From Escherichia phage U1G, in the sequence record NC_070872.1: DNA of 64,000 bases; one strand, 5' to 3'. The first letter of the stretch is position 1. Each line of letters begins with the position of its first letter. The notes beneath the pieces were generated by a model. It worked only from the letters and a program-made list of their open reading frames with translations. It made no database searches and was not told where the DNA came from. Of this stretch, positions 1-37,000 are shown piece after piece. The position numbers and the translations under genes are program-made.

Positions 1-59
1 AAACGCCTGAAGCATTTAGGGGTGGATCTATCTGTACTACCTGAAGAAGAGGAAGAAGA

Positions 60-245
60 GTGAAATTAACCCAGTCCCAAATTATTTTCCTTCGCATGGT
101 TCAAGGTGGTTCTGCCACCAACAACCGTAATAACAAAACCGCACAGTCTCTTAAGAAACTGAGCTTAATACAGTTTAATGCTGGTCTTGGGTGGTCATTA
201 ACCCCTACCGGAGTACTTCAACTCAACGAGTTAAAAGGTAACTAA
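60..245 (+). CDS. hypothetical small protein
   Basis: ORF in track, 61 aa; no recognisable motif; weak. Confidence 0.2.
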   Translation: MKLTQSQIIFLRMVQGGSATNNRNNKTAQSLKKLSLIQFNAGLGWSLTPTGVLQLNELKGN

Positions 246-572
246 ATGAAAACTTTAATTGCTGTTGCTGTAGTAGCTTTATCAGTTCTGTCATTCAGTG
301 CTCAAGCATCAAGCCGTGAAACTCTGTTAGACGCTGCTGCCGACTACAAAGCCAATAATGCAAACTTTGTGAACCAGGGTTACTTCATGGGCATGGTTAC
401 TATGGGTGTAGAGTCAGGAAATAATTGTGTACCGGAGAATATGAAGTTAGGAGCCATATTTGACAGAGTAGCTTCTATTATCCTGTATGACCGAAAGGTT
501 AATGCAACGAAAAAACCGTCAGATATGATTCTGATGGCAATTGATACAGCATACCCATGTATTAAATCTTAA
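246..572 (+). CDS. hypothetical secreted/periplasmic protein
   Basis: N-terminal signal-peptide-like segment MKTLIAVAVVALSVLSFSAQA followed by polar mature region. Confidence 0.45.
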   Translation: MKTLIAVAVVALSVLSFSAQASSRETLLDAAADYKANNANFVNQGYFMGMVTMGVESGNNCVPENMKLGAIFDRVASIILYDRKVNATKKPSDMILMAIDTAYPCIKS

Positions 573-606
573 TTAGTAATTCCATTAACTTTAGGAGAGT
601 AAGTAA

Positions 607-927
607 ATGGCGAGCATTGACTCACTGACCGTATGTAATACACGTCAGGCCCGTAACTTTATTATCCGTGCCCTGCAAGCAGGTAACGTACCGTTCCTGA
701 CTTCATCACCAGGCATGGGTAAATCTGCAATTATTCGTTCTGTTGCAGAAGAATTTGGTATGAAGCTGATAGACCATCGTCTGTCTACTTCTGCCCCAGA
801 AGACTTGTCAGGCCTACCATTCCGTAATGGTGACCATGCAGAGTTTATTCCTTTCGCTGATTTATTCCCTATTGAAGGGGATGAAATACCAGAAGGGTAT
901 AATGGTTGGCTCTTGTTCCTTAACTAA
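607..927 (+). CDS. MoxR-like AAA+ ATPase, N-terminal part (exon 1)
   Basis: Walker A SSPGMGKSA; ORF ends GWLLFLN-stop exactly where Walker B hhhhDE is expected; the DEFNSA continuation is found at 1804 in the downstream ORF. Confidence 0.6.
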   Translation: MASIDSLTVCNTRQARNFIIRALQAGNVPFLTSSPGMGKSAIIRSVAEEFGMKLIDHRLSTSAPEDLSGLPFRNGDHAEFIPFADLFPIEGDEIPEGYNGWLLFLN

Positions 928-1802
928 CGGGGCTTCATGAGAGTAATCTCATGTCGAAAGTTACCTAAACAGGGAACCTCTTCTAATCTGGTTGGCTCAG
1001 GTGTATACTTGAGTTTTAATCAATTGGAGACAATCCTGTGCTAAATAATGAAATTTGGAAAGATGTGCCCGACTTACCGTATGAAGTTTCCAACTTTGGC
1101 GTAGTACGCCGAAAAGAAGGAAAGTATAAATACAAAAATAGGACACACATAAAACCGTATCTTAATAACAAAGGGTACTACTGCGTGAACCTGTACATGA
1201 ATAGTAAAGTGTACAAATACCAAGTTCACCGTCTAGTAGGGTTAGCCTTTGTACCAAACCCTAATAACTATCCTATCGTTAATCATATAGATGGAAACCC
1301 TCTTAATAACCACGAGAGTAACCTGGAATGGTGTACCCAGTCTCACAACATGAAACATGCTTGGGATACTGGACTGCAATCAAACAGGCACGCTAATGCT
1401 AGTAATAAGAATCGTGGAGGCTCATCCAAATACGTAGGTGTATCCTGGAGTGAGCAAAGACAAAGATGGTGTGCCCATATAAGGGTTAACAAGAAATCTA
1501 TTGGTTTGGGGCGTTACAAAACAGAGGAAGAAGCTGCCAAAGCCTATGACTCCTATGTAACTAATAACAATCTTATACAGATTGGATACAGTACCAATTT
1601 CATTTAAACGCCAAACGACTATCGAAAACACGCAGCAATGCGGAAGTGAGTAGAGTAGGGTGCAAGCCAATGGCACTCGAAACGGTAACAGCCCTAGTAA
1701 TAGGGCTTTGATATAGTCTCCTCTGCATGGTGACATGCAGCAGTCAGTATTCACTGAGTGTACTGACGGCATTAGTAGTTGCGAACTAATGTGAAGATAA
1801 TG
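922..1802 (+). mobile_element. putative group I intron carrying an HNH endonuclease ORF, interrupting the ATPase gene
   Basis: Walker B split across the insertion; T at last 5' exon position (920) and G at 1802 fit group I splice rules and restore LLFL-DEFN in frame; structured-looking flanks; boundaries approximate. Confidence 0.4.
1038..1607 (+). CDS. HNH homing endonuclease with AP2 DNA-binding domain
   Basis: HNH_3-like NHIDGNPLNNHESNLEWCTQSHN and AP2-like YVGVSWSEQRQRWCAHIRVNKKSIGLGRYKTEEEAAKAYD; GTG start after GGAG. Confidence 0.7.
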   Translation: MLNNEIWKDVPDLPYEVSNFGVVRRKEGKYKYKNRTHIKPYLNNKGYYCVNLYMNSKVYKYQVHRLVGLAFVPNPNNYPIVNHIDGNPLNNHESNLEWCTQSHNMKHAWDTGLQSNRHANASNKNRGGSSKYVGVSWSEQRQRWCAHIRVNKKSIGLGRYKTEEEAAKAYDSYVTNNNLIQIGYSTNFI

Positions 1803-2541
1803 CGATGAGTTCAACTCAGCCAGAAAAGAAGTAGTAGCTGCTGCATATAAACTCATACTAGACCGTATGACTGGTCAGAAAAAACTTCATCCTAATGTGA
1901 TGATTATATGTGCTGGTAACAAAGCTACTGACCGAGCCATTGTTAACCCACTGGGTACTGCAATGCAGTCTCGTGTTGTCCACTTTGAAATGGAACTTAA
2001 CTTCGACATCTTTGTTGAAGACGTGATGATTCCATTTGAATGGGATGAGCGTCTGGTTGCATTCTTACATGCTAACCCGGGTTATCTGCATGACTTCGAC
2101 CCAGCACATAAGAACAAAACGTTCTGTTGTCCCCGTACCTGGGACTTTGTTAACAAAGACCTCAAGAACCGTCCTGAAGGTGCTCTACCTGACGAAGATT
2201 CTATCTACTACGCAGGGCACGTTACTGCTGGTAAGGCTACAGAGTTTGTTCAGTTTACACAGGTGTACAATCGTATGATTACGATTGAGAAGGTAGTCAA
2301 AGACCCTCTGGGCTGTGCACTACCGGAAGATAACAACCTGTGCTGGGCTACCGTTAACCATTTGGCTAATAAAACTACTGAAGAAAACTTCTCTGATGTT
2401 CTTCAGTACATTGAACGATTTAAAACGTTCACTCATAAGATTCTGTACTTCCGTACAGTAGGCAGAGCATTGCCAGAACTTCAGGCTACCCCTGAATGGC
2501 GTAAGGCTGCTTCCAATATCTCTCGTTACATTCACGGATAA
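1803..2541 (+). CDS. MoxR-like AAA+ ATPase, C-terminal part (exon 2)
   Basis: Frame open from 1801 reads DEFNSARKEVVAAAYKLILDRMTGQ...VMIICAGN (Walker B and sensor region); ORF track starts it at 1867. Confidence 0.6.
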
Positions 2542-2548
2542 TCACAAC

Positions 2549-3052
2549 ATGAACCAGATACCTCAGCACACACTTAGTGATGAACAACTCATGCGTGAGT
2601 ATGACCGTATTCAGGCGCAGGCATTTCTCGGACGTAGTGCAGCATTTTTTGGTTCATTACTGTGTAGTCTTAAGTTCTCATGGAAACGTGAAGACTGCCC
2701 CACTGCATGTACTGATGGAATAGAACTCCATTTCAACCCAGACTTCTTTATCTGGATGTGTCCAGATGCAAGAGAAACAGTGCTAATGCACGAACTCTGG
2801 CATGTGGCATATCTGCATGGCATCCGTCGTGGAAGCCGTGACCCAGAGGTCTGGAACCAGGCATGTGACCACTTCATTAATCTTCAGTTAGAAGAAGATG
2901 GATATAAGTTCACTGGTATCGACAAAGGCATTTGCAAAGACCCTCAATACAAAGGGTGGGTCGAAGAAGACATCTACGATGACCTGATGAAGAACCCTCA
3001 GAAAAGGCAGAAGCCGTCAGGGGTGCTGGAGCAGGTCTTGCTGGTGACATGA
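2549..3052 (+). CDS. VWA-partner protein, N-terminal metallopeptidase-like domain (HExxH, DUF2201-like)
   Basis: HELWH motif; directly downstream of the MoxR ATPase; probably one gene with 3049..3723 (frame break). Confidence 0.5.
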   Translation: MNQIPQHTLSDEQLMREYDRIQAQAFLGRSAAFFGSLLCSLKFSWKREDCPTACTDGIELHFNPDFFIWMCPDARETVLMHELWHVAYLHGIRRGSRDPEVWNQACDHFINLQLEEDGYKFTGIDKGICKDPQYKGWVEEDIYDDLMKNPQKRQKPSGVLEQVLLVT

Positions 3053-3723
3053 AATCTCCCACTTCGGGGCAGTCCCAGGGTGCTGTCGTCAACAACGTAG
3101 TACGAGCAATGCAGAGCCAGAAAATGGCTGGTGGACAGATGCCCGGTAAGGGTGCTGGTCGTATGGAAGAGGTTATTACCCAATTCCTTAAACCAGTGGT
3201 TCCATGGCAGGAAGTCCTCATGAACTTCTTTACCGACATTGACGATACTCATTATACGTGGGCCAGACCTAACCGTCGTTTTACTGACATCTATCTACCT
3301 TCCATGGAAGATGATGAAGGACGCTTACGACACTTAGCCTACTTTGAAGATGTATCTGGTTCTATTAGTAGTGCAGATTCTCTGCGATTTAACTCAGAGG
3401 TTGCCTACGTTAAGAGCCAGTTCAATCCTAAGAAGATGTCCCTAATTACCTTCGACGATATTATTCAAGAAGAGATAGACATCACTGAAGAAGATACTTT
3501 TGAAGAGATTAAGATTACTGGTCGTGGTGGTACAAACCTGGAACCAGTACGTGATTGGATTATTAAGAATAAGCCAACCGCTGCAATCATATTCTCTGAT
3601 ATGTATGTTCGTCCTATGGAAGAATTACCATTTGATATTCCTATCATCTGGTGTGTTCTGAATAATCCCAATGCTACCGTACCTTTTGGGGAGGTAGTTC
3701 ATATCCCTAAAGGAATGAAATAA
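3049..3723 (+). CDS. von Willebrand factor A (VWA) domain protein, C-terminal part
   Basis: VWA-like fold signature; -1 frame is open back to 2983 through a Gly/Ala linker, suggesting fusion with 2549..3052. Confidence 0.5.
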   Translation: MKSPTSGQSQGAVVNNVVRAMQSQKMAGGQMPGKGAGRMEEVITQFLKPVVPWQEVLMNFFTDIDDTHYTWARPNRRFTDIYLPSMEDDEGRLRHLAYFEDVSGSISSADSLRFNSEVAYVKSQFNPKKMSLITFDDIIQEEIDITEEDTFEEIKITGRGGTNLEPVRDWIIKNKPTAAIIFSDMYVRPMEELPFDIPIIWCVLNNPNATVPFGEVVHIPKGMK

Positions 3724-13004: not shown

Positions 13005-13502
13005 ATGAACTGGAACCAAATATTCGATTTCGTAGATGGCAAGCTCTACTGGAAAAACTGTACACAGCCTTTTAGAAATGGCACAGAAGCTGGTTGCTTA
13101 TCTGAGGATGGTTATCTAAGTGTAAGGCACAATAGAGTACTATATCTAAACCATCACATAATTTTCGAGATGCATAAAGGTAAGATTCCCCCAGGTATGG
13201 TGATTGACCATGATGACAGGAACAAACTTAATAATTACCCAAGCAATTTAATAGCCAAAACCCAACAAGATAACACCAAAAACCAAACCATGCGTAAAAG
13301 CAATATGGCAGGTTGCACAGGTGTTCGCTTTAGAAGTGAAAGGGGTAAATGGCAAGCCCGAATTACTGTAGATGGTAAGCAAAAACACCTAGGTTATTTT
13401 ACAACCAAAGAAGATGCTATATCAGCAAGAGAGGAAGCCAACATAAAGTATGGTTTCCATAAAAACCATGGAAAACCTACTGGAGGCTCCTTTGTTCGCT
13501 AA
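13005..13502 (+). CDS. HNH homing endonuclease with AP2 domain (free-standing)
   Basis: HNH_3-like VIDHDDRNKLNNYPSNL and AP2-like GVRFRSERGKWQARITVDGKQKHLGYFTTKEDA. Confidence 0.7.
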   Translation: MNWNQIFDFVDGKLYWKNCTQPFRNGTEAGCLSEDGYLSVRHNRVLYLNHHIIFEMHKGKIPPGMVIDHDDRNKLNNYPSNLIAKTQQDNTKNQTMRKSNMAGCTGVRFRSERGKWQARITVDGKQKHLGYFTTKEDAISAREEANIKYGFHKNHGKPTGGSFVR

Positions 13503-15352: not shown

Positions 15353-17167
15353 ATGCGTTACATCACCTCTCAGGATACTGGTAAGTATCCTATTGCTATC
15401 CTCGGTCATCAAATCCGAAGGGAGGAGATGATTAAAACCTATCTGCTGCCTTATGACCTAAGTATGGAAGACTTCATCTTTATTGAACTTCATTCTGCCC
15501 CCGGCAAGAAAACTCCTGCAAGAGAGATTAAGGAGTTCATACAGCAGGAACTGCAACAAGTACTGGATGATGCAGAGACTCAATACATTATCTGTACCGA
15601 TTCTGACTACTTCAAAATACTGACTAAAGAAGCTAAAGCAGAGGCTAACCTCGGCTATGTTTGTGACTCAGTATGGGGTAAGCAGAAGGTTATCTATGCA
15701 CCTAGCTACAGACAGGTCTTTTATGACCCTCCTGTAGTGAAATCCAAGATTGCTCAGGGTATGGATGCATTACTTAACCACATACGTGGGCAGTATGCTG
15801 AACCAGGTCAAGGAATCATTGAGTTTGAAGCCTATCCGGATACTCCCGAGAAGATTAAAGCCTGGCTAGACCAGTTGCTTGAGATGAATAAGCCATTGGC
15901 TATAGACATCGAAGCATTCGGTTTAAAGCACTATAACGCCGGTATAGGGACAATTACATTCTGTTGGAGTAAAACACAAGGCATAGCCTTTAACGTGGAC
16001 TACGAGCCGATTCCTGGAGCTACTGAAGCACCATACGGGCGTATCAACCGTAATGATATTGTTCGAAACCTTCTGCGTGAGTTCTTCATTAAGTACACCC
16101 AACGGCAGATGTATCACAACATTAGCTATGATGTGTACATACTTATCTATCAGTTATTCATGGATAATCTGATTGATACAGAGGGACTACTACATGGCAT
16201 GGACATCATGCTGCGTAATTGGGACTGTACTAAGTTAATCACCTATCTGGCTACTAACAGTTGTGCAGGCAATCATCTTAGTCTAAAAGAGCAGGCTCAG
16301 GAGTATGCTGGTAACTATGCTCAGGATGATATCAAAGACATACGTCTTATTCCTAATGAGCAACTGTTACGCTACAACCTCATTGATGGTTTGTGTACTT
16401 GGTACACATACGAGAAGCACTGGGATACTCTCATTGCCGATGACCAACTTGATGTTTACAACAGCATCTTTAAACCAGCCTGTGAAGACATTATTCAGAT
16501 GCAGTTAACCGGTATGCCCATGAATATGGAAACCGTTAACCAAGTAGCTGAAGAAATGGAAACTGACAGGAACCAGGCTCTGAAAACTATTCGTGAGTCT
16601 AACCTCATGAAGAACTTTACCCTGATGCTTCGTCAGGAATGGGTAGACGATAAGAATGCTAAGCTTAAGAAGAAGCAGGTAACACTAGCTGATTGTGACA
16701 TTGAGTTTAATCCTAACTCTGGCCCACAACTACAGAAGCTGTTATTTGACTATATCGGCTTACCGGTTCTTGGTCTTACTAAGAGCAAGCAACCTGCTAC
16801 TGACGGTGACACTATTAAAGCACTGCGTACACATACGCAGAGTGAAGATGTTAAGGAACTGCTCAATGCACTTATCGACTATAAGCTCGTGGATAAGATT
16901 ATCACTAGCTTTATACCAGCTTTCAGGAATGCCCAACCGGGACCAGATGGCTGGCACTACCTGTTCGGTAACCTCAATCTGGGAGGCACAGTCTCCGGTA
17001 GGTTATCGGCTTCAGAGCCAAATCTACAAACAATTCCATCCGGCTCTAAATATGCCAAGAAGATTAAGAAATGCTTCGAAGCTCCACCTAGTTGTTACTT
17101 GCCAAACAGGACCAAGCTGGATACATTAATCCAGTCCCTGAAAAATACAATTAGTGGTGCCAAATGA
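15353..17167 (+). CDS. family-A DNA polymerase, N-terminal part (3'-5' exonuclease and start of polymerase domain)
   Basis: Exo motif LAIDIEAFGL; polymerase segment GRLSASEPNLQTIP...KKCFEAPP stops just before motif A; functional exon probably ends near 17089. Confidence 0.7.
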   Translation: MRYITSQDTGKYPIAILGHQIRREEMIKTYLLPYDLSMEDFIFIELHSAPGKKTPAREIKEFIQQELQQVLDDAETQYIICTDSDYFKILTKEAKAEANLGYVCDSVWGKQKVIYAPSYRQVFYDPPVVKSKIAQGMDALLNHIRGQYAEPGQGIIEFEAYPDTPEKIKAWLDQLLEMNKPLAIDIEAFGLKHYNAGIGTITFCWSKTQGIAFNVDYEPIPGATEAPYGRINRNDIVRNLLREFFIKYTQRQMYHNISYDVYILIYQLFMDNLIDTEGLLHGMDIMLRNWDCTKLITYLATNSCAGNHLSLKEQAQEYAGNYAQDDIKDIRLIPNEQLLRYNLIDGLCTWYTYEKHWDTLIADDQLDVYNSIFKPACEDIIQMQLTGMPMNMETVNQVAEEMETDRNQALKTIRESNLMKNFTLMLRQEWVDDKNAKLKKKQVTLADCDIEFNPNSGPQLQKLLFDYIGLPVLGLTKSKQPATDGDTIKALRTHTQSEDVKELLNALIDYKLVDKIITSFIPAFRNAQPGPDGWHYLFGNLNLGGTVSGRLSASEPNLQTIPSGSKYAKKIKKCFEAPPSCYLPNRTKLDTLIQSLKNTISGAK

Positions 17168-17820
17168 TAGGAAAGAAATTTAATAGATTGACTGTAGTCA
17201 GGTTCAGTCACAAAGACAAATACTATGCAAAGCATTGGGAATGCCTTTGTGACTGTGGGAATACTACTATAGTCAACAATCAAAAATTAAAGAGTGGTCA
17301 TACAAGAAGTTGTGGATGTTTACACAAAGAATGCCTACGTAACTATAAAGATGGTCGTTCTAAGGAACTACTATATAAGGTTTACTACGGCATCCTTGAC
17401 CGCTGCCATAATGAAAAGTGTTCCACTTATTACAAATATGGGGCTAAGGGCATAAGTGTTTGCGATGAGTGGAAAAATTCATACGAAACTTTCCGAGATT
17501 GGGCATTATCTTCTGGTTATGCAGCAGGTCTTAGTATCGACAGGATTGATGCCTATAAAGGATATTCTCCAGACAACTGTAGATGGGCAAATAGAAGTAC
17601 CCAACAAACTAACAAAAGGGTTTGGAGTACAACTCCTTACGTTAGCTACAGTAAGTCAAAAAATAAATGGGTAGGTAGAATTACCCATTTGGGTAAGAGA
17701 ATAGAAATCCGGGTAGATAGAGATCTAGATACTGTTATGAATGCAGTTATTGCTTATGTATTAGCTAATAACTTGGTTGAACAGGAGAAGGTACTTCGTA
17801 ATGCAGGACTTATTAAATAA
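17164..17820 (+). CDS. putative homing endonuclease inserted in the DNA polymerase gene
   Basis: N-terminal GKKFNRLTVV and Cys/His cluster, AP2-like C-terminal segment; sits exactly between polymerase motif-A halves. Confidence 0.5.
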   Translation: MIGKKFNRLTVVRFSHKDKYYAKHWECLCDCGNTTIVNNQKLKSGHTRSCGCLHKECLRNYKDGRSKELLYKVYYGILDRCHNEKCSTYYKYGAKGISVCDEWKNSYETFRDWALSSGYAAGLSIDRIDAYKGYSPDNCRWANRSTQQTNKRVWSTTPYVSYSKSKNKWVGRITHLGKRIEIRVDRDLDTVMNAVIAYVLANNLVEQEKVLRNAGLIK

Positions 17821-18772
17821 ATTAGTTAGCATAAAGGATAGAGTAACCCTGGATGACTATGACGAGTTAATACAATTAGCTAGTAAATATGGCATGCAGG
17901 AACAAGTATCTGAATGCTTTGACTATGAGGGTGGATGGTTGTTTTGTGGGCTAGACTTTGCGTCCTTAGAGGATCGCATATCAGCCCTAACAACCAAAGA
18001 CCCTAATAAATTGCGTGTGTATACTGACGGGTTTGACGGTCATTCACTCAGAGCTAAATTTTATTTCGGTGAACAAATGCCGGATATTGATGACTCTGTA
18101 GAAAGCATCAACTCTATACAGAAAAAATATAAAGCCTTACGTAGCGAATCGAAAGCACCTACTTTCTTACTGACCTACGGCGGAACTTATATGGGCTTAA
18201 TGAAAAACTGTGGCTTCTCGGAAGAGAAGGCTAAATTAATTGAGTCCAGATACCACGAAATGTATACGGTTAGTGATGCCTGGGTTCAGGCTAAGCTAGA
18301 CGAAGCTGCTAAGACTGGTTATGTAACTGCTGCATTTGGTTTGAGAGTGCGTACTCCTTTACTGGCTCAGGTTTTACGTGGGACATGTAAGACCCCATAT
18401 GAAGCAGAAGCTGAAGGCAGGACTGCTGGTAATGCATTAGGTCAAAGCTGGTGTCTACTGAATAATCGTGCTGGCTCAGAGTTTATGCGTAAAGTCAGAA
18501 CCAGTGAGTTCAGATTAGATATACGTCCTTGTATTCACATTCATGATGCCCAATACTTCATGATTCGTGACAACATGGATACCTTGCAGTACACGAACAA
18601 GCACTTGGTTGAAGCCGTTAACTGGCAAGACCATCCTGATATTGCTCATCCAGAAGTTGGTTTGGGTGGGGAACTATCCTTGTTTTACCCAACGTGGGCT
18701 AACGAGATTGAAATTCCAAATCACGCTACCCCAGATGAAGTTCATCAAATAATTCAAAAGGCATTCGCATGA
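17777..18772 (+). CDS. family-A DNA polymerase, C-terminal part (motifs A, B, C)
   Basis: Motif A GGWLFCGLDFASLEDRI, motif B KAPTFLLTYGG, motif C HIHDAQ; real exon probably begins near 17900. Confidence 0.7.
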   Translation: MNRRRYFVMQDLLNKLVSIKDRVTLDDYDELIQLASKYGMQEQVSECFDYEGGWLFCGLDFASLEDRISALTTKDPNKLRVYTDGFDGHSLRAKFYFGEQMPDIDDSVESINSIQKKYKALRSESKAPTFLLTYGGTYMGLMKNCGFSEEKAKLIESRYHEMYTVSDAWVQAKLDEAAKTGYVTAAFGLRVRTPLLAQVLRGTCKTPYEAEAEGRTAGNALGQSWCLLNNRAGSEFMRKVRTSEFRLDIRPCIHIHDAQYFMIRDNMDTLQYTNKHLVEAVNWQDHPDIAHPEVGLGGELSLFYPTWANEIEIPNHATPDEVHQIIQKAFA

Positions 18773-28050: not shown

Positions 28051-31000
28051 TTAGTTAGTAAGGTTGAGCCAAGGGTTCAGGTTATGGGCACGTAAGCCTT
28101 GACCGAAGCCCCAGGAGTAACCGAGATTGCCTTGTGCAGCAATACTGAATATGTTGTCCTGAATAGGTAAACCAACATTACCAAACATGGTAGGAGTTGG
28201 AGCCAATATAGCCATAGCTGCATGTACCGGGTTATTACGAATCATGGATACTGCAATTTTTGCAGAACGAATCTTAAAGTTATAGAACCACATTAAACCA
28301 ACACTTTCCATATATCCACGGAAGCGACCAGGTAAACGGTCGTAGTTAATGAACTCTTCCGTTACACGCCCCAGTGCTTCTTCACGAGTCTTACCTTTAC
28401 GCTGAGTCAAATCATCATAGATGATTGCTTTAGCAATAAAGTCAGAGTACTCAACCGTCTTCTGGATACCCTGGAAGAGAGCAGTATCCTTAGTGATAAG
28501 AGCATAACGTCCAGCGTTGCGTACAGACTTAGGTAACTTATCAGCCAGTTTATCCATGTATTCGTGAAGTTTACCTTCGGTAATCAGGATGTCATCACGT
28601 CCAATACCTGCATCTGCAATTGAAGAGAACTCACCCGCTTCTAACAGAGGCCAAATACTCATACGCTTATGGCTATCAGTGATGGACTGAATCTCAGCCT
28701 TAAGCTTACGAATCTGGTTCGGGTTAGTAGCTGCACGTAATTCTGCTTCTGCATCTACCTGACGCAGACGAGATTTCAGGTACTGATTAATCTCAGCAGT
28801 CTTCTGTGGAATGCTCTTAGCAATGTTCTTAACAGGTACACCACGAGCAACCATCTGGTAAAGGTTAGCCAGGAAGTTAACAGCAGGTACAACTACTGAC
28901 TTAACCACAATCAGAGTCTTAGCTTCTTTAACTAAGTTCTGAACCAAGTTCTCACCACCCATTACATACTTATAGGCACGGTTACCGAAGACACCCAGCA
29001 TAGCTTTCTTGAAGGTATCCAGTGTTTCTGGGGACCAACGAGAATTACCAGACCAGGCATCACCAACAGAAGCTGCACGATAACCTAGTGCATCGTTGAG
29101 CATGTCACGACGTACCCACAGCTCACCCGGGCCAAACAGACTTTCTGCTTTCTGACGAGTTTCACTGTTCATCAGCTTAAGTGCATCAGCAGTTACTGGG
29201 TCCAGTTTAGAACCAAGAAGGTTAACGTACTGAGACTTATTAGAGACAGACATCTTAATGTCGTTTTCATACATGCTATGCAGGTTCTCAATCAGCATAT
29301 CGTTGAAACGCTGGGCCTTAGCTTCCTCCACCTGACGTCCACGCCATACACCAATTGCACGAGCAAGATGGTTCTCACCTTCAATGTGCTTCAGCATATT
29401 AGGGTCAATGGATTGCTCGTAAGCAACCACATTACCATTGGCATCATATACAGGCAGCAGTGGTTCATTACCACGTTCACCACGAGCCAGTGCTTTAGTA
29501 ATACGGTCTACAGAAGGCTTGTCAGTAATACGACCTGCTACCATGGTTCCCATCGTAAAGCCTGTACCAAGGTCTACACCACCAGCAGTATTGCGAACGT
29601 TCTGTAGGATACCCTGTGAGAATGGAGCCTGTGCCTGTACAGGTGCGAAGTAGTAGCTACGTGCTGGACCACGGTTAGCAGAGCTACCCTGATAAGTACC
29701 CAGACGTACATAGGATTTTTCAATCAAATCAGCAAATTGGCTATCTTCAGCAACAATCAGGTTAACACCTTGTTTAGTCTCACCAGGAATATACCCTTTG
29801 TACTGGTTCAGGGTTGCACGAGTATCCGACTTGGCTTTAGCCATTTCATCTTTACGCTGACCAACCAGGTAAGAGGTAGCAAAGTCCATGCCTTCAGTTT
29901 CTGTTTGAGCCAGTGAAGATAACATCTCACGGTCAGTCTTACTCATTGCTTCCAGTGCATACAGAGTAATCAGTTTATCCAGTTGAGCTACGTCTACAGT
30001 AGAACGTGCAGACTGGCGTTCTCCCAGCATACGAGAGATTGCTGTAGCATTACGCAGCAGGTTATTACCAACTGTACCGTTAATCATGTACTGAGCCAGT
30101 TGCTTAGATTTACGGCTAATCAAAGGCCAGTTACGTCCTGCTTGTTTCTGCAAATCTGCTTCCAGTTTATTAACCTCACGGTCAACAATCTTCTGGTCAG
30201 TCAGCAAGTCACGGATTTCAGCCAGAGACATAGTGTCACGCAAAACAGCTAGGTCAGTTTTACCCATTCCAGTATGCATTGCTTTCCACTCATCATTAGT
30301 CAGCTTACGGCTGAACTTAGATGCGATAGTGGTAGGCAAATGTTCACGGAACTGTTGACGGTCAGCCTGTACCTGTGCACGTACTGCTTTAATCAAATCG
30401 TATACAGAAGCATTACTCTTAGTACGACCAGTTAGGTCATTAACCAGGTCATGGAAAGGTTGCCATACTTTACCCTGGTTCATTGCAGCCATAACACCTT
30501 CAGCTACGATTTCACCATTCTTCTCTGTAGCAATAGCAGCTATTAGTTGTGCAGCATGAGCAGCACCTTTGACCAGTGGGTTCTTGGTATTAGCTGCAAC
30601 TTCACGAGCACCTTCCAAAGCACGGGTAGACAGTACATCAATAGAATCCACCAGATACTGGTTAGCACGGTCAATAGCATTACCACTAGGAGTAGCAACG
30701 GAATCATAGAAGGATTGTGCATTAAGACTCGTCTGCATGATTGTCTGAGCCAGTGCATCCATACCTTCCTGTACGTTAGTGGCTTTAGTATCACCTGCTA
30801 CGCGAGCATTCAGACTAGCCATTGCAGCAGTACCAATGTTAGTCAGCATTGCATCAACTGTATTACCAGATTGCTTATCTGCTTTCATAACTGGAATGTC
30901 AGCCAGTACTTTGCGTACTTCTTCACTTACCATTGCCAGACCAACAAAGGTAGGTAGTAAGGAAGAACGACCCTGTGCATCAAACTCAATATTGTTAGCA

Positions 31001-34000
31001 CCCATGATGGTATCGAACTTCTGTTGAGCGTAGTAACGGTCAGCAGGGTTAGTACTATCTGGGTCAGCCATGAACGCTTCAACGGTCAGGTTCTTAGTAA
31101 CATGCGTGTAGTATTCCTGTGCACGAGCCAAAGCAGCTGGGTTAATAGCAGCCTCAGTAGCCAGAGCAGCAACAATGTTAGTGAAAAGACGTTGTTCCTG
31201 CATATTCATAGTGAAGCCATGAGCCTGAACATCACGAGTTACTTTAGTTGCATTCACTACTGCATCAGAGAACTTACCTTTACGAATTACTTGCTGTACT
31301 GGTTCAGAACCAATGTAGTCAGTAATCAGTTTATCGAAGGTTTTGCCCAACTCTTCCAGACGAGTATTGTCACCATATGCTTTGTTATGGAACAAAGTAG
31401 TATCTTTGGCTACAGCAGCAGTAGGAGCTTGTCCACGCATTACTACAGCAGAGTTAAACAATAAGCCGGAGAACATATCATCAGCATTAGCTGGTGCTTT
31501 CTTACGACCAAATACCAGACGCTTGATTGCTTCATATACAGCCTGAACCATTGTTTTCAGTGCAGTAGTTTTCTTCTGCTTACTAATCAGTTCACGGTTA
31601 GTTAAGCCCCATGCCATGTACTCATTAAGTGCAGCAGCTTTAGCCATTGCTGGTTCAATGAAGCCATTAGACAAGTGACCATTAATGGTATTAAGTGCAT
31701 CAGCATATGCCTCACGTACTGCCGGGGATTCATCCTTAACATCCAGAGCACGGAATTGATTCATCAGGTCTTCAATATTCTGTACTGCTTCATTAGGAGT
31801 ACCTTCGTAGTGAGCCAGTACAGATTCAAAAGTAGAAGCATGTACTAATTCATGAACCAGAGTCTCTAAGGAAGGAGTAACTAAGTAGATGGTCTTATCT
31901 TCGAAGTTAGTCCAGCCGTATGCATTACCAGCTTCAGCAGCTTCAATATCTTCCGGTGCTGGACGAGTAATGTTCTTCTCAATAGCATAGGCATCCAGTT
32001 GAGAAGGTGTACCGTAAACAACCTTGTAGTCTTTAGCAGCAAGGGATTTCTGTACTTCTTTCAGTACTGCTTGCTGTTCCGGAGACATCTCTTTAGCCAG
32101 CTTAGAGATAGCAGTATTAGACAACAGACGTACACCAGATTTCAGTACACGACCAACCTGTTCCATTGCTGGTACTTCTTTCACTGGTTCTGCTTTAGCA
32201 GCACGTACTGCATCACGACGCTTGTTTAATTCAGCATCAAACAGTTCGTTCAGCTTAGCTACTTGTTGGTCTACGGTCAGACCTTCCAGAGAGATTTTAC
32301 CGTTGTTCACATAAGGAGCACCAACAGCAGCCATCTGGTCAACAGTAGTCTGTACCTGGTTCATTACTTTGTGGCGAATATCCACACCCAGTGCAATGTT
32401 ACGCAGGTTACGTTCAATCTGTTCAGCACCAATACGTAACAAGTCATCAGTAGCACCCTCACGTTGGTCATATTCCAGAGCAGATTTAGCGATAGCCTGT
32501 TTGGTTTCATCAGACAGTTTGCTGAAGTCTACGTTCTTCATGAACTTAGAGAAGGAGTCATAAACATTCTTGATAGGGTTACCCTGCCAGGAAGTGTATA
32601 CAGCCTCGTTAGCTTTACGACTTGCATCAGTGATGTTATTGATACCAATGTTCATACCATCAAAGATTTTCAGAGTATTCTTCGGAGCACCCTTCATAGT
32701 AGAAAGGGTCTGCATCATCATGCCATCACCAGTACCAATGGTCATAAATGGAATACCTGCAACACCTGCCTGTGAAGGAGCATAGATGCTCATTGGCACA
32801 CGCATACGGTCATCTAAGTTGGTAGCCAGTACTTGGTTAGCAACATCAGTATTCTCACTACCAGCAATGTAGAAAGTCTGTGAGCCAGTCTCAATCATTG
32901 GAGCCAGTGGAGACAATGATTCCTGGATTTCATTCAGTTCTTTCTGTGTTAAGAAATCACCCTTCTTCCATGTTGGGTCTTTTTCTTTTTCTGCCAGCTT
33001 AGCCTGTACTGCTTGTTGGAACATGTCTTGCAGAACCAGAGACTGAATCTGGGTAGCCTTCTGCAAGTTCTCAGTAGAGTGCATCAGACCTTCGCCAACA
33101 GTATTACGAATACCAGTACGCATTGGTTCAACGAACAAGTGAAGCATGTTTTCTTGCAGGTTCTTCAGGGCATTCCCAGATACGGTAAACTTCTGAGGGT
33201 CTAACTTACCAGTCAGAGCACCTTCTACCTGTTGAATAGACAGTTGACCTTTACGCATAACTGGAACATTACCAGTCAGTGCTTCCATGGACGTAAGGAA
33301 AGTATCCAGCATAGCCTGAGCATCAGCCTCAGACGCAGCCTCCTTACCAAACATTGCCATAGCTGGGGAAATGCTAGGGTCAGCAGCGCGAGCTTGCAGA
33401 ACATCACTGAAGCGTTCATAGATGGTGTCAGTAATTGCACTAACCATCTTGCCAGCAATACCACGAGCACCGGAACCATAGATGGTAATAGTCAGTGGGT
33501 TTTTAGCGATACCACGTTTCAGGTCCAAAGTACCGTCTTCATTCAAGTTAAAGTCTTTAATGAACAGGTCCATTAACTTCTGAAGATGATTCATCTGGTT
33601 CATAACCGGAACGTTGTTACGGTAAGTAGTACGTAACTCATTCAGTGCTTGTTGCAGACCATTAGTAGATGCTTCATACAAGTCAACACTATCATCCTGT
33701 GAACGATGTTCGTTCATAGTCTTACCGGCTTTACCGAAGAACAGACCACCTTTAGCAGTATTCTTAATCCAGTCTGAAGTAAACCTACCACCAGTCATTA
33801 ATACCATTGCGTTGATTGGTCCGTTAGTTACACCATCGGCTTCAACGTACAGTGGGGTATTAAAGTTAGCACGGTCATCACTGTTCAGGTAACGGGCATA
33901 CTCCATCAGAGCCATGAGAGCTACGAAGGATTTATCGCCACCAAGAGACGTCTTCAGAATATCTACTGCATTGGCAGGTAAGTGACCAGACTTATCAAAC

Positions 34001-37000
34001 TCAACCATCATATCTACAGCAGGTTTCAGATTACCTTCCAGAGCTTTAGTCAGCTTTTCAGACATAGCTTCACGGGACATGTTATGTACCTTGATACCTA
34101 ATGCCTGAGCCAGACCTAACTGGAAGTCAGAGAATGTTTGGCTGTTTTCATTACTCAAGTCAATAGTAGAGAAGGTTGGCAGAATTGCTTCACGAACCAG
34201 TTTACTGGATTGTGGATTGTTCTTACCTAACATCTGCATACGACCTACACGGGTCATGTTGTAACCATAGTGAATAGGCGTATCCAGACCATTCTCCTGT
34301 TCCTGTAATTGATTGATTACACCAAACAAAGAGTCATATGCCATAGACACTGACAGGTTCTTACCTTCCAGTGATTTAGCAGTATTCACGTTCAGCAGTT
34401 CAGGATTAAGAGTACCAGCACCCATCAGTTCCAGAATGTTGTCACGACCTAATGCTTCATAGAAGTTAACCATCGGCATGTGTACACGGAACTCGGTAGC
34501 CTGTTCTGCTTTAAGAGCAGCTTTCTGCTCTGGGGTATTCTTAACAGCAGGGTTACGTAACTGAGTTTGAGCCACGGAAGGAATATCATCACCAAAGTAC
34601 ATTTTCTCTTCTGGTTCTACGAGAACAGCTTCCTCGATAGCAGTAGGGAACTTGTTAATGGCATCGTTATCGTCCAGCTTCTCAATAGTATATAGACCAA
34701 TAGTCTTATTGGAGTCTGGGTCAATCTCAGACACATCAAGCATAGATTCTTTAACTTCACCCATCTCAATGAGAGAAGACAGAATCTCTGTAGCCATTGC
34801 CATTGGAATACCTTTGGTATAACCCAGTGGTGCATTTGGATTACGGTCCAAACCCCAGTAAGATTCAATCTTTTGAGCCAGTGAGTTAGTAGCTTCAACC
34901 AGAGTCTGAGCATTCTCGAATTCAGCCAGAATACCTTCTGGTAACAGAGATGCTTCTACACCAGTAATAGCAGCTACGTCTTTCATATCTTTAACAGCAG
35001 CATTCTGTGTAGCAGTCAGTCGCCATTGCAGACCAGCAAGTACAGCAGTTTCTAACAACTGGTCATTAAACTTAAAGGTATCCCCATCTTTCTCTACGAT
35101 GTTAAGTAACTTACCACCTACCCAACGGTTAGCTTCAGTACCTTCTGCAAAACGTTTACCTACGTTCTTATTAGCAAGGAACTTAGCCAGACGGTCAGAC
35201 AAAGTAGTCTTCAGAGTTTCGCCAAAATCAAATAAGTCCTGATAACGCTTAATCACATCACTTGTGAGAGCGTTATTTTCTTTTTGAGTGAATGCTTCAA
35301 AGCGAGCAGCAGAAGACAGTGCTTTCTTAACATCAGTCAAAGGGGATTCAGAACCAATGGTTCGAGACTTAGATTCTTCCGGCAGAGTAAATGCCTTAAG
35401 GAACTGGTTCGGTGTCTTGTCATTGTTATAGACAGGGAACACTGTTTCCATTTGAGATAGGGGTTTACCACCAACGGTATAGTCTGCTTTCAGTTGAGCC
35501 AGAGATACCTCTATCTTCTCAACGTTATTGGTATTACGCCCAGACGTATCTACACCTATTTGAATCAGTGCATTGTTTGCTTCTACGAATGATTGAACAG
35601 TATTGAATTGTTCAGGAGTCAGCTTCTGATTATCAAACAGTTGCAATGATACAAACGGTTGTTCACTGCCTTTATAGAAGGTAGAGCGAATAGCACCAGT
35701 ATCTAATGACATATCACGATAACCATCATGACCAAATACGTCCGACAAGCTAATGTGGTCACCATTAGAGCCAACAACAGTACCGTCAGCAAAGAGCCAA
35801 GGACTCTCTTTACGATCACCATACTTATTAAGAGTATCTTGAGAAATAGTATTCTCTTTTACATAAGCATCTCTTTCAGATTCAGTAGACTGTACATCAG
35901 TATCCTGTTTTTCAGACTGGTTCTCAGGCTCTTTTACAGACTGTGGTTTAGACTCTTTAATAGTAGATTCTGTTTTAACAGCTTCACTAACAGAGGGTTT
36001 AGTCTGTACAGTAGAGGTAACTGGTTCCTGTTTCATAACAGGAGTTTCATCAACCTGATTCACTGGTTCATTGGTCTGTTGAGACTGAGTGGCATCAAGA
36101 CCACCTTGACGGAACTCTTTAACTACCTGGGCAGCAGGCTTGTCCAGACGTGAATCCAATGGGGTAACTTTCACATGAGAAACATTAAGCTCCGGGTAAG
36201 CCGTAGCAAGTGCATTAGCAATATCAGCTACGGTCTTGGCCTCCAGTCCTACTTGCTGGGCAAACTTAACAGACTTGGTATCATACGGATTGACACCGAG
36301 GCCAGTACGACTACGTACCCATTCACGGGAAGGAGTAAGAGCCTGATAATGGACAGACTTATTCTTATCCGCATTCCCAGAAATCAGATGCTCATTCAAC
36401 GCTCCGACCTTATTCTGCATGTGCTGGGCGAACTTCATAAAGTCGTCGAGATAAGCGGAAGCCAAATCGAAGTTACCAGAGTTGTACGCAGAACGAATGC
36501 GTTTAGCATGTTGCAACGCAGAGTACTGACCTTCATTAGAACGAGACTCGTCGGTTTTAATTTGTTTACTAACAATATCTTGAGGACGTAAGCCTAATTC
36601 TTCTGCTTTAGCGTCGAATTCACGTGCACCCTGTAACAAGGCAGCAGCCGATTGCAGGGCAGCACGTTGTCTATTCCCCAGTGTAATCTTACCTTCACTT
36701 GCATGTTTCAGAACCATGTTCACTGAATCTGCATCCAGTACTTCTGGAGACATATCAGCAGCCATAGCAATGTTGTTTGCTTGGGTTTGGTTAGCTTCTT
36801 CAGTAGCTTTCAGTTTACCCGCTTCAGCCTGCTCCTGAATCATGGAATGAATGGCACGGAATGCACGAAGTACCTTCGGTGTATTCTGAACGTTAGCCAT
36901 CAGGCCAGAGAACTGGTCAACAATATTAGCAGCATGAGAACCTTGTTCCAGGTTAGCCAGAGCACCTGGGTCACGGTTAATGAAGCTATCCATAGACATG

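Follow-up and report, generated by a model that had tools for sequence, protein, structure and literature searches.

The window analysed was a stretch of 64,000 nucleotides (nt) from Escherichia phage U1G (NC_070872.1), in which positions 921..1802 of the plus strand interrupt gp24, the gene of an AAA+ ATPase of Gamaleyavirus phages. This segment is very probably a mobile, self-splicing group I intron of subgroup IA2, closely related to the td intron of phage T4 and carrying a homing endonuclease gene. An earlier note, made from the sequence alone, had proposed a putative group I intron with an HNH-AP2 endonuclease inside the Walker B motif of the ATPase. The proposal was supported by the comparison with insert-free homologues, by homology to td and by covarying core helices.

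Insertion within the Walker B motif of gp24

The limits of the insertion were obtained from relatives without it. In BLAST comparisons with insert-free PhAPEC7 and G7C, window positions 54..921 and 1804..3000 aligned to adjacent positions, leaving 882 nt extra in the window. The limits can be placed at 922..1803 or equivalently at 921..1802, since the insert-free sequence is CTT|GAT and that of the window CT|T...G|C GAT. The flanks of PhAPEC7 and G7C joined without a gap at ...TTCCTT|GATGAG.... Insert-free alleles read ...CTGTTCCTT|GATGAGTTC at this point, and the window reads ...TTGTTCCT|T AAC...AATG|C GATGAGTTC. The presumed target of the endonuclease in uninterrupted alleles is ...CTGTTCCTTGATGAGTTC..., with ...GGCTGGCTCCTGTTCCTTGATGAGTTCAACTC... 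in G7C and PhAPEC7; the intron-carrying allele shows synonymous differences at -9 and +1. All five intron-carrying alleles had C at position 1803, where insert-free alleles had T, which fits an exon boundary CU|C. U920 and G1802 were the sole U...G pair that restores the reading frame.

The open reading frames (ORFs) on both sides agreed with these limits. The upstream ORF, 607..927, terminated with ...GWLLFLN-stop where Walker B should follow, and a frame reading (C)DEFNSARKEVVAAAYKLIL and carrying DEFNSARKEVV... opened at 1801, right after the TAA at 1798..1800. Joining T920 to C1803 gave CTC GAT GAG and an in-frame protein of 350 amino acids (aa). This product was collinear with the uninterrupted gp24 of PhAPEC7 over its whole length and matched PHROG 1297 in a single stretch (residues 4-349). 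In Walker B, the insertion point separates Leu from Asp-Glu (LLFL|DEFN). The predicted exon junction is ...UUGUUCCU|CGAUGAGUUC, with ...NGWLLFLDEFNSAR as the junction-spanning peptide. Insert-free relatives have one gp24 ORF, and the ATPase is normally a single polypeptide rather than two. The truncated upstream frame, the downstream frame, the join restoring LLFL-DEFN, and the U at the 5' splice site with a terminal intron G had all been described in the earlier note; this observation was confirmed in every detail and a chance pattern is excluded.

Window region 500..2700 matched 57 phage records, with identities of about 90-94%. They all belonged to Gamaleyavirus, the G7C-like N4-like podophages infecting E. 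coli, Shigella and Klebsiella. The interrupted gene corresponds to gp24, a 350-aa 'ATPase' in the annotated relatives PhAPEC7 and G7C, where it is followed by gp25 (VWA-like protein) and then by dCTP deaminase. Its Walker A motif is given in Table 1, and its Walker B (LLFLDE) appears on joining the exons. The joined product passed the Pfam model AAA with 28.7 bits (cut-off 21.2). It scored 17.4 bits against AAA_5, below the cut-off of 22, and no MoxR model (AAA_3) was listed. The nearest solved relatives were midasin AAA domains (E = 6.6e-5), and their alignment placed the insertion site inside the Walker B box (nGwllfLDEfN vs VLDELN). Downstream of gp24 lies a VWA/DUF2201 partner gene, an arrangement typical of MoxR systems. 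The description as a MoxR-like ATPase is therefore only loosely right: an AAA+ protein with Walker A and B stands, while the AAA_5 score stayed below its cut-off and midasin AAA domains were the nearest relatives.

The same insert was found in one further record, NAN33P5, and the other 56 of the 57 lacked it cleanly. It was also absent from all eight gp24 loci of IMG/VR. Four other copies were obtained, always at the same site: in the Gamaleyavirus phage NAN33P5 (intron 95.4% identical), in a Logan contig and in the metagenome contigs SKEL01004972 and SKEF01000206. The Logan contig, from SRR25011182, encodes an identical endonuclease; one such contig was read and a second was reported. Such presence/absence polymorphism among close relatives is a sign of mobility.

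Ribozyme model and covariation

The secondary structure was modelled by hand, guided by the T4 td intron (from NC_000866). A complete td-like core formed, and all 14 modelled helices (P1, P2, P3, P4, P5, P6, P6a, P7, P7.1, P7.2, P8, P9, P9.1 and P9.2) consisted of standard pairs throughout (Table 1). Six of them (P2, P6a, P8, P9, P9.1 and P9.2) were recovered as well when a construct lacking the ORF was folded to minimum energy without constraints. In P4, the pair A971-U1037 stands for a G-C pair in td and is compensatory. From the sequence, an alternative P1 register with U920.G930 is possible, which would add a P10 of 2 bp with C1803-G1804. No sigma-70-like promoter and no terminator was found inside the intron.

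Related introns were collected from IMG/VR viral contigs with a pattern of the R element, CUCGAAA and the S element, which returned at least 120 matching stretches. Across these stretches, the P7.1 and P7.2 hairpins varied freely in sequence yet stayed hairpins. P3 was evaluated by an anchored search with a permutation control. This was used instead of a strict fixed-register search for P3 with 'TAAA', which had found partners in only 16 among the 120 loci listed. The test covered 23 distinct loci whose 5' half could be recognised. Of these, 78% paired with their own 3' partner in a P3 helix of 6 bp or more, compared with 14.5% with permuted partners (maximum of 200 permutations, 35%). RNAalifold predicted P7, P7.2, P8 and P9 unaided from 23 3' halves, with compensatory changes at 12 of 22 pairs. 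From 16 5' halves it predicted P2, P4 and P5, with compensatory changes at 13 of 17 pairs, P2 being covered at all seven of its pairs. P7 was invariant in this set, which had been picked by the P7 motif and is hence uninformative on P7. P6a, which closes the ORF loop, occurred at the same place with differing sequences, forming 10-12 pairs each, in the window, pSb-1, intron 2 of NAN33P5 and T4 td. Altogether, P2, P3, P4, P5, P7.2, P8 and P9 were supported by covariation among related phage introns, and the window sequence was consistent with all of these tests. A placement of P7 at 'GCACU' near position 1673 was rejected on the viral-contig loci and RNAalifold: GGGUGC...GCACUC is P7.2, and AACGACUAUC is the R element.

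Table 1. Features of the interrupted gp24 gene and of its putative intron in the window, with related introns in other phages (positions of the latter refer to their own loci).
Feature	Position	Strand	Basis
Exon 1 of gp24 (AAA+ ATPase); Walker A SSPGMGKS; ends ...LLF-CU	607..920	+	ORF list; alignment to insert-free gp24 of PhAPEC7 and G7C
Putative group I intron, subgroup IA2 (T4-td-like), 882 nt; begins UAACUAAC, ends GAUAAUG; terminal guanosine G1802	921..1802	+	Insert-free alignment; td homology; hand model
P1: exon U917-C-C-U920 with internal guide G929-G932; U920.G929 wobble at the splice site	917..932	+	Hand model
P1 loop: 8 nt, UAACUAAC; contains in-frame stop UAA 925..927		+	Length and layout as in T4 td
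P2 hairpin CAUGAGA-GUAA-UCUCAUG, 7 bp, GNRA loop	936..953	+	Minimum-energy fold; RNAalifold
P3 5' strand GUUACC; partner 1684..1689	960..965	+	Hand model; permutation test
P4 5' strand ACAGGG (P element); partner UCCUGU 1034..1039 (Q element)	969..974	+	Hand model; RNAalifold
P5 (979..983 with 1026..1030) and extended P5a/b arm (984..1025)	979..1030	+	Hand model; RNAalifold
Putative homing endonuclease ORF, 189 aa, NUMOD4 + HNH_3 + AP2; GTG start overlaps P4 3' / P6	1038..1607	+	Pfam; PHROGs
P6 5' strand G1040-C1041 and P6a 5' strand 1047..1058; partners 1610..1611 and 1594..1604; ORF looped out	1040..1058	+	Hand model
P6a 3' strand 1594..1604 (last ORF codons) and P6 3' strand 1610..1611	1594..1611	+	Hand model
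P7 5' strand GACUAU in R element AACGACUAUC; partner AUAGUC 1713..1718 in S element GAUAUAGUC	1617..1622	+	Identical to T4 td; RNAalifold
P7.1 (CAC/GUG + GCA/UGC, GCAA loop), hallmark of subgroup IA	1629..1648	+	Hand model
P7.2 hairpin GGGUGC-AAGCCAAUG-GCACUC	1658..1678	+	Hand model; RNAalifold
P3 3' strand GGUAAC; P3 and P7 make the pseudoknot	1684..1689	+	Hand model; permutation test
P8 hairpin AGCCCUA-GUAA-UAGGGCU	1690..1707	+	Hand model; RNAalifold
P7 3' strand AUAGUC; preceded by J8/7 UUGAU	1713..1718	+	td identity; RNAalifold
P9 (identical to td)	1724..1739	+	Minimum-energy fold; covariation
P9.1	1743..1767	+	Minimum-energy fold
P9.2	1770..1791	+	Minimum-energy fold
Exon 2 of gp24; begins C-GAU-GAG; completes Leu105; supplies Walker B Asp-Glu	1803..2541	+	Insert-free alignment; midasin alignment
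Related IA2 intron with HNH endonuclease, phage pSb-1 (L005)	1837..2707		
Related IA2 intron with HNH endonuclease, phage NAN33P5 (L003)	2630..3493		
Related IA2 intron with HNH endonuclease, Vibrio phage phi 1 (L137)	about 1873..2803		

Putative homing endonuclease, predicted splicing and alternative explanations

The insert contains a complete HNH-AP2 ORF with its own GGAG and GTG start, as had been read from the sequence. All three Pfam domains of the 189-aa product scored above their cut-offs (NUMOD4 37.3, HNH_3 34.6 and AP2 40.1 bits), and the product matched the HNH endonucleases of PHROG 59 with E = 2.6e-44. Its ribosome-binding site, GGAG at 1026..1029, forms the 3' strand of P5, and the GTG at 1038..1040 spans P4 3' and P6. 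In the intron of pSb-1, an ATG occupies the equivalent start position and is accompanied by a compensating change in the P4 5' strand. Because the ribosome-binding site and the start codon are built into P5, P4 and P6, the endonuclease is probably translated in competition with ribozyme folding.

The other copies carried 5-8 substitutions each in the ribozyme part, and none broke a modelled helix. In P7.1, G1632-C1641 was replaced by A-U in three other copies, a double compensatory change. U982.G1027 became C-G and C1633-G1640 became U.G in other copies, and the tetraloop changes in P2, P7.1 and P8 retained the GNRA pattern. Compared with NAN33P5, the ribozyme part was 97.8% identical and the flanking exons 92.3%. 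In each of the three other copies that were read completely, the endonuclease ORF was intact; relative to NAN33P5 it showed 34 differences, 24 of them synonymous. Judged from these helix-preserving substitutions, the intact ORF and its mostly synonymous differences, the RNA structure and the endonuclease are both under purifying selection.

The intron is well preserved and almost certainly able to splice. We infer splicing, the activity and target of the endonuclease, and any regulation, as follows. A ribosome on the gp24 transcript would halt at the UAA at 925..927, two codons into the intron. The RNA would fold into a P1-P10 core with the P3/P7 pseudoknot and a guanosine-binding site in P7. 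An external guanosine would then attack after U920, held in the U.G wobble of P1, and the freed exon would attack after the terminal G1802, joining CU to C-GAU-GAG. The joined mRNA would encode the intact 350-aa ATPase. In co-infections, the NUMOD4-HNH-AP2 enzyme may cut or nick insert-free gp24 alleles of the other phages, and repair would copy the intron into the cut alleles (homing).

Several results weigh against a group I intron at this site. P1 is short, with UCCU facing GGGG in four pairs, two of which are G.U, and two registers are possible. The long-range helices P3, P4, P5 and P7 were not recovered by the minimum-energy fold; this is expected for a pseudoknotted ribozyme, and hence that fold was not used as a test. 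An Rfam search of the whole window found nothing at the gathering threshold. In a 1-kb search, Intron_gpI (RF00028) scored 23.7 bits at 1430..1740 (E = 0.0012), short of the gathering score of 50, and the alignment misplaced P1 and P2 inside the ORF, so that only J8/7-P7-P9 were sensibly placed. In the same search, the ORF-carrying controls T4 td, nrdB, the pSb-1 intron and both NAN33P5 introns likewise gave no Intron_gpI match at gathering level. ORF-less introns of the same class passed it (87, 67 and 54 bits for L100, L107 and L129). The low score was therefore not taken as evidence against an intron, and it is most likely due to the 570-nt ORF in P6a.

The insert might instead be a non-splicing endonuclease insertion that leaves gp24 as two separately translated polypeptides, so-called 'genes in pieces', which we consider very unlikely. 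It draws on a precedent in the same phage group, since the g39 DNA polymerase insertion of the G7C-like phage 10Gb was experimentally non-splicing and gave two polypeptides (bioRxiv 10.1101/542787); an insertion alone thus does not imply splicing, and this precedent also counts against an intron here. The DNA polymerase gene of the window itself appears to be split in this way, and the sub-threshold Rfam score of the gp24 insert points in the same direction. However, about 312 nt of the insert lie outside the ORF and form a complete td-like core, covarying and conserved across five copies. Exon 2 has neither a start codon nor a ribosome-binding site at 1803, and its first in-frame ATG, at 1867, is downstream of Walker B. 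A split into two polypeptides would part Walker A from the Asp-Glu of Walker B and break the latter motif itself.

Slightly less probable still is a decayed intron that no longer splices, with gp24 a pseudogene in this phage. The weak P1 would agree with decay, as would the 1-nt deletion and frameshift in the neighbouring gp25, by which the gp24-gp25 module might be dispensable or decaying. Yet the junctions and elements of the catalytic core match those of td (J3/4 UAAAC, J4/5 AA, J6/7, J8/7 GAUAU, P7 and the terminal G), the five copies are free of helix-breaking substitutions, and both exons are open and 92% conserved. The gp25 break was moreover absent from the copies L138 and L140. An intein or another in-frame insertion at the protein level, suggested by the fact that inteins often occupy the P-loop or Walker motifs of ATPases, is refuted by the sequence: the reading frame of exon 1 reaches a stop (TAA 925..927) two codons inside the insert, the endonuclease ORF starts separately, and none of the frames runs uninterrupted through the insert.

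Other insertions in the window and relation to known introns

Downstream of gp24, gp25 (DUF2201 / VWA-like) was broken near 3019..3023 into the ORFs 2549..3052 and 3049..3723. The break is a 1-nt deletion in a G run, with four G in the window vs five in PhAPEC7 and NAN33P5, and represents either a homopolymer error of sequencing or assembly or a real frameshift.

The PolA-type DNA polymerase gene (N4 gp39 homologue, 15353..18772) was interrupted by an 843-nt insert at 17090..17932, with ...KKCFEAPP before it and GWLFCGLDFASLEDR after it, shortly upstream of motif A. Within the insert, an HNH ORF of 218 aa (17164..17820) overlaps both neighbouring ORFs, the N-terminal one at its end (ATGA) and the C-terminal one at its start (ATG 17801); less than 190 nt lie outside the endonuclease ORF. 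Neither an Rfam match nor an R/S motif was found in the insert. Most relatives lacked this insert, which PGN829.1, phi G17 and ST4 share; PhAPEC7 carries a different sequence at about the same place. By analogy to the non-spliced g39 insertion of phage 10Gb (bioRxiv 10.1101/542787), it is a probable 'gene in pieces'. Further R/S motifs in the window were at chance level only, and a minus-strand pair at 16.7 to 17.4 kb was too far apart and antisense to the polymerase gene.

Two free-standing endonuclease ORFs, HNH/AP2-like by eye only, were located upstream of the helicase gene (13005..13502, 165 aa) and between the exonuclease gene gp42 and the primase gene gp43 (20521..20958, 145 aa), where PhAPEC7 has no such gene. 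With these two counted, the window holds four endonuclease insertions. A 'putative intron' of 795 nt that contains an endonuclease is annotated in gp44 (AAA family ATPase) of PhAPEC7 (L141, 30410..31204) and is absent at window position 23539. The virion RNA polymerase ORF (28051..38823, minus strand) was continuous with 3590 aa; its segment 35454..36038 (585 nt) stands against an unrelated 183 nt in PhAPEC7 and constitutes an in-frame variable or inserted segment. The intergenic region 27419..28065 gave sub-threshold Rfam matches to BSnc120, STnc100 and Ysr49, which are unrelated bacterial small RNA families. PhAPEC7 differs at the equivalent place and has a tRNA annotated there; ARAGORN found no tRNA at 26 to 29 kb of the window. 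The region is probably a structured terminator or intergenic sequence.

Introns related to that of the window were found at two further sites of gp24. The second site, after about codon 67, is occupied in Shigella phage pSb-1, E. coli phage PW8 and Vibrio phage phi 1. The third, equivalent to window position 2137|2138 (about codon 216), holds intron 2 of NAN33P5, a phage with two introns in gp24. Among the relatives, gp24 is thus a repeated intron target. The copies in pSb-1 and NAN33P5 follow the U|...G rule and are annotated as separate small ORFs or not at all. The introns at both of these sites share with the window's intron the gene, the IA2 class and the HNH endonuclease family (NUMOD4 N-terminus, and AP2 where checked); the insertion site, P3, P8 and the extensions of P9 set them apart. 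In the P7-P7.1-P7.2 block, pSb-1 nearly equals the window, and in P9, NAN33P5 intron 2 is identical to it, so that the three gp24 ribozymes share modules in a mosaic pattern. The endonucleases at different sites are only about 37% identical. A possible but rather unlikely reading is that gp24 serves as a recurrent landing pad for one radiating IA2 lineage (codons ~67, 105/106 and ~216), combined with an either/or switch between endonuclease translation and ribozyme folding. If it were true, retargeting of endonucleases and recombination of introns would give rise to further sites of insertion in a single gene.

N4-like phages were already known to contain introns and genes split by endonucleases, among them gp24 in Vibrio phages. 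HNH genes split gp24, the DNA polymerase gene and gp43 in Vibrio N4-like phages, for which introns were suggested (Fouts et al. 2013, PMC3670811), and the HNH gene in gp24 of phages JA-1 and VchO139-I 'may be carried on an intron' (PMC3670811). A td intron was reported in the N4-like Vibrio phage pVa5 (PMC5746245). The literature searched for Gamaleyavirus, Schitoviridae and pSb-1 yielded no account of an intron in Walker B of gp24. As far as these papers go, its position within Walker B of an AAA+ ATPase is a new entry among the catalytic-site targets of phage introns. The current understanding of group I introns is unchanged by it, and the find is unsurprising to a specialist. For annotation, gp24 of the window and of NAN33P5 should be given as one joined coding sequence (here 607..920 + 1803..2541) instead of being split into an HNH gene and a pair of hypothetical proteins. 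Pieces of interrupted gp24 genes already form separate families, such as PHROG 21479 (68 aa, 'unknown function'), which matches only gp24 residues 1-67, upstream of the pSb-1-type site. The related introns at three gp24 positions offer material on how homing endonucleases gain new targets. With the gp24 intron, predicted to be spliced, and the apparently non-spliced DNA polymerase insertion, both outcomes can be compared in one genome.

Within the genus, a described case is the intron in g16 (RNA polymerase II subunit) of the phages Sz33 and N4G2. In G7C-like phages, this intron splices, as established by reverse transcription PCR and at the protein level, and Rfam missed it as well (bioRxiv 10.1101/542787). 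It shares with the gp24 intron the phage genus, a length of about 800 nt and a homing endonuclease ORF; it resides in another gene and was compared by its published description. PhAPEC7 (NC_024790), also a Gamaleyavirus, has its DNA polymerase gene and gp44 annotated as joined around endonuclease ORFs (putative introns). These are other genes; gp24 of PhAPEC7 is uninterrupted, and the window has no gp44 insert. Group I introns with HNH-family endonucleases are further found in T4 nrdB (I-TevIII), in the DNA polymerase gene of SPO1 (I-HmuI), in Twort and in the DNA polymerase gene of T7-like phages, where they occupy catalytically conserved sites of essential or conserved phage genes. Their endonucleases are built differently (a zinc finger in I-TevIII, no AP2 domain in I-HmuI), and these introns sit in genes other than gp24.

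The T4 td intron, an experimentally established group I intron of subgroup IA2, is a close structural relative. Both introns contain CUAAAC-GGGAACCUCU (J3/4-P4) and GACAAUCC-GUGCUAAAU (Q-P6), as well as AACGACUAUC (R), GAGUAGGG, CUCGAAAC and GAUAUAGUCU (S) on their 3' sides. P9 (CUGCAUGGUGACAUGCAG) is identical, and both end in AUAAUG|C. The order of elements, P1-P2-P3-P4-P5-P6/P6a[ORF]-P7-P7.1-P7.2-P3'-P8-P7'-P9-P9.1-P9.2, is the same, and so are the 8-nt P1 loop, the stop codon at the intron start and the ORF looped out from P6a. On the 5' side, the window reads UAACUAAC...CCUAAACAGGGAACCUCU...GACAAUCCUGUGCUAAAU where td reads UAAUUGAG...UCUAAACGGGGAACCUCU...GACAAUCCCGUGCUAAAU. P2, P3 and P8 are wholly different in sequence yet complementary, and a G-C pair of P4 is replaced by A-U. 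The window's intron further differs by an extended P5, a longer P7.1 and an endonuclease start inside P4/P6, whereas that of td lies far into the loop. The td intron interrupts the thymidylate synthase gene of Straboviridae and carries the GIY-YIG endonuclease I-TevI, whereas the window's intron interrupts the AAA+ ATPase gene gp24 of Schitoviridae and carries a NUMOD4-HNH-AP2 endonuclease.

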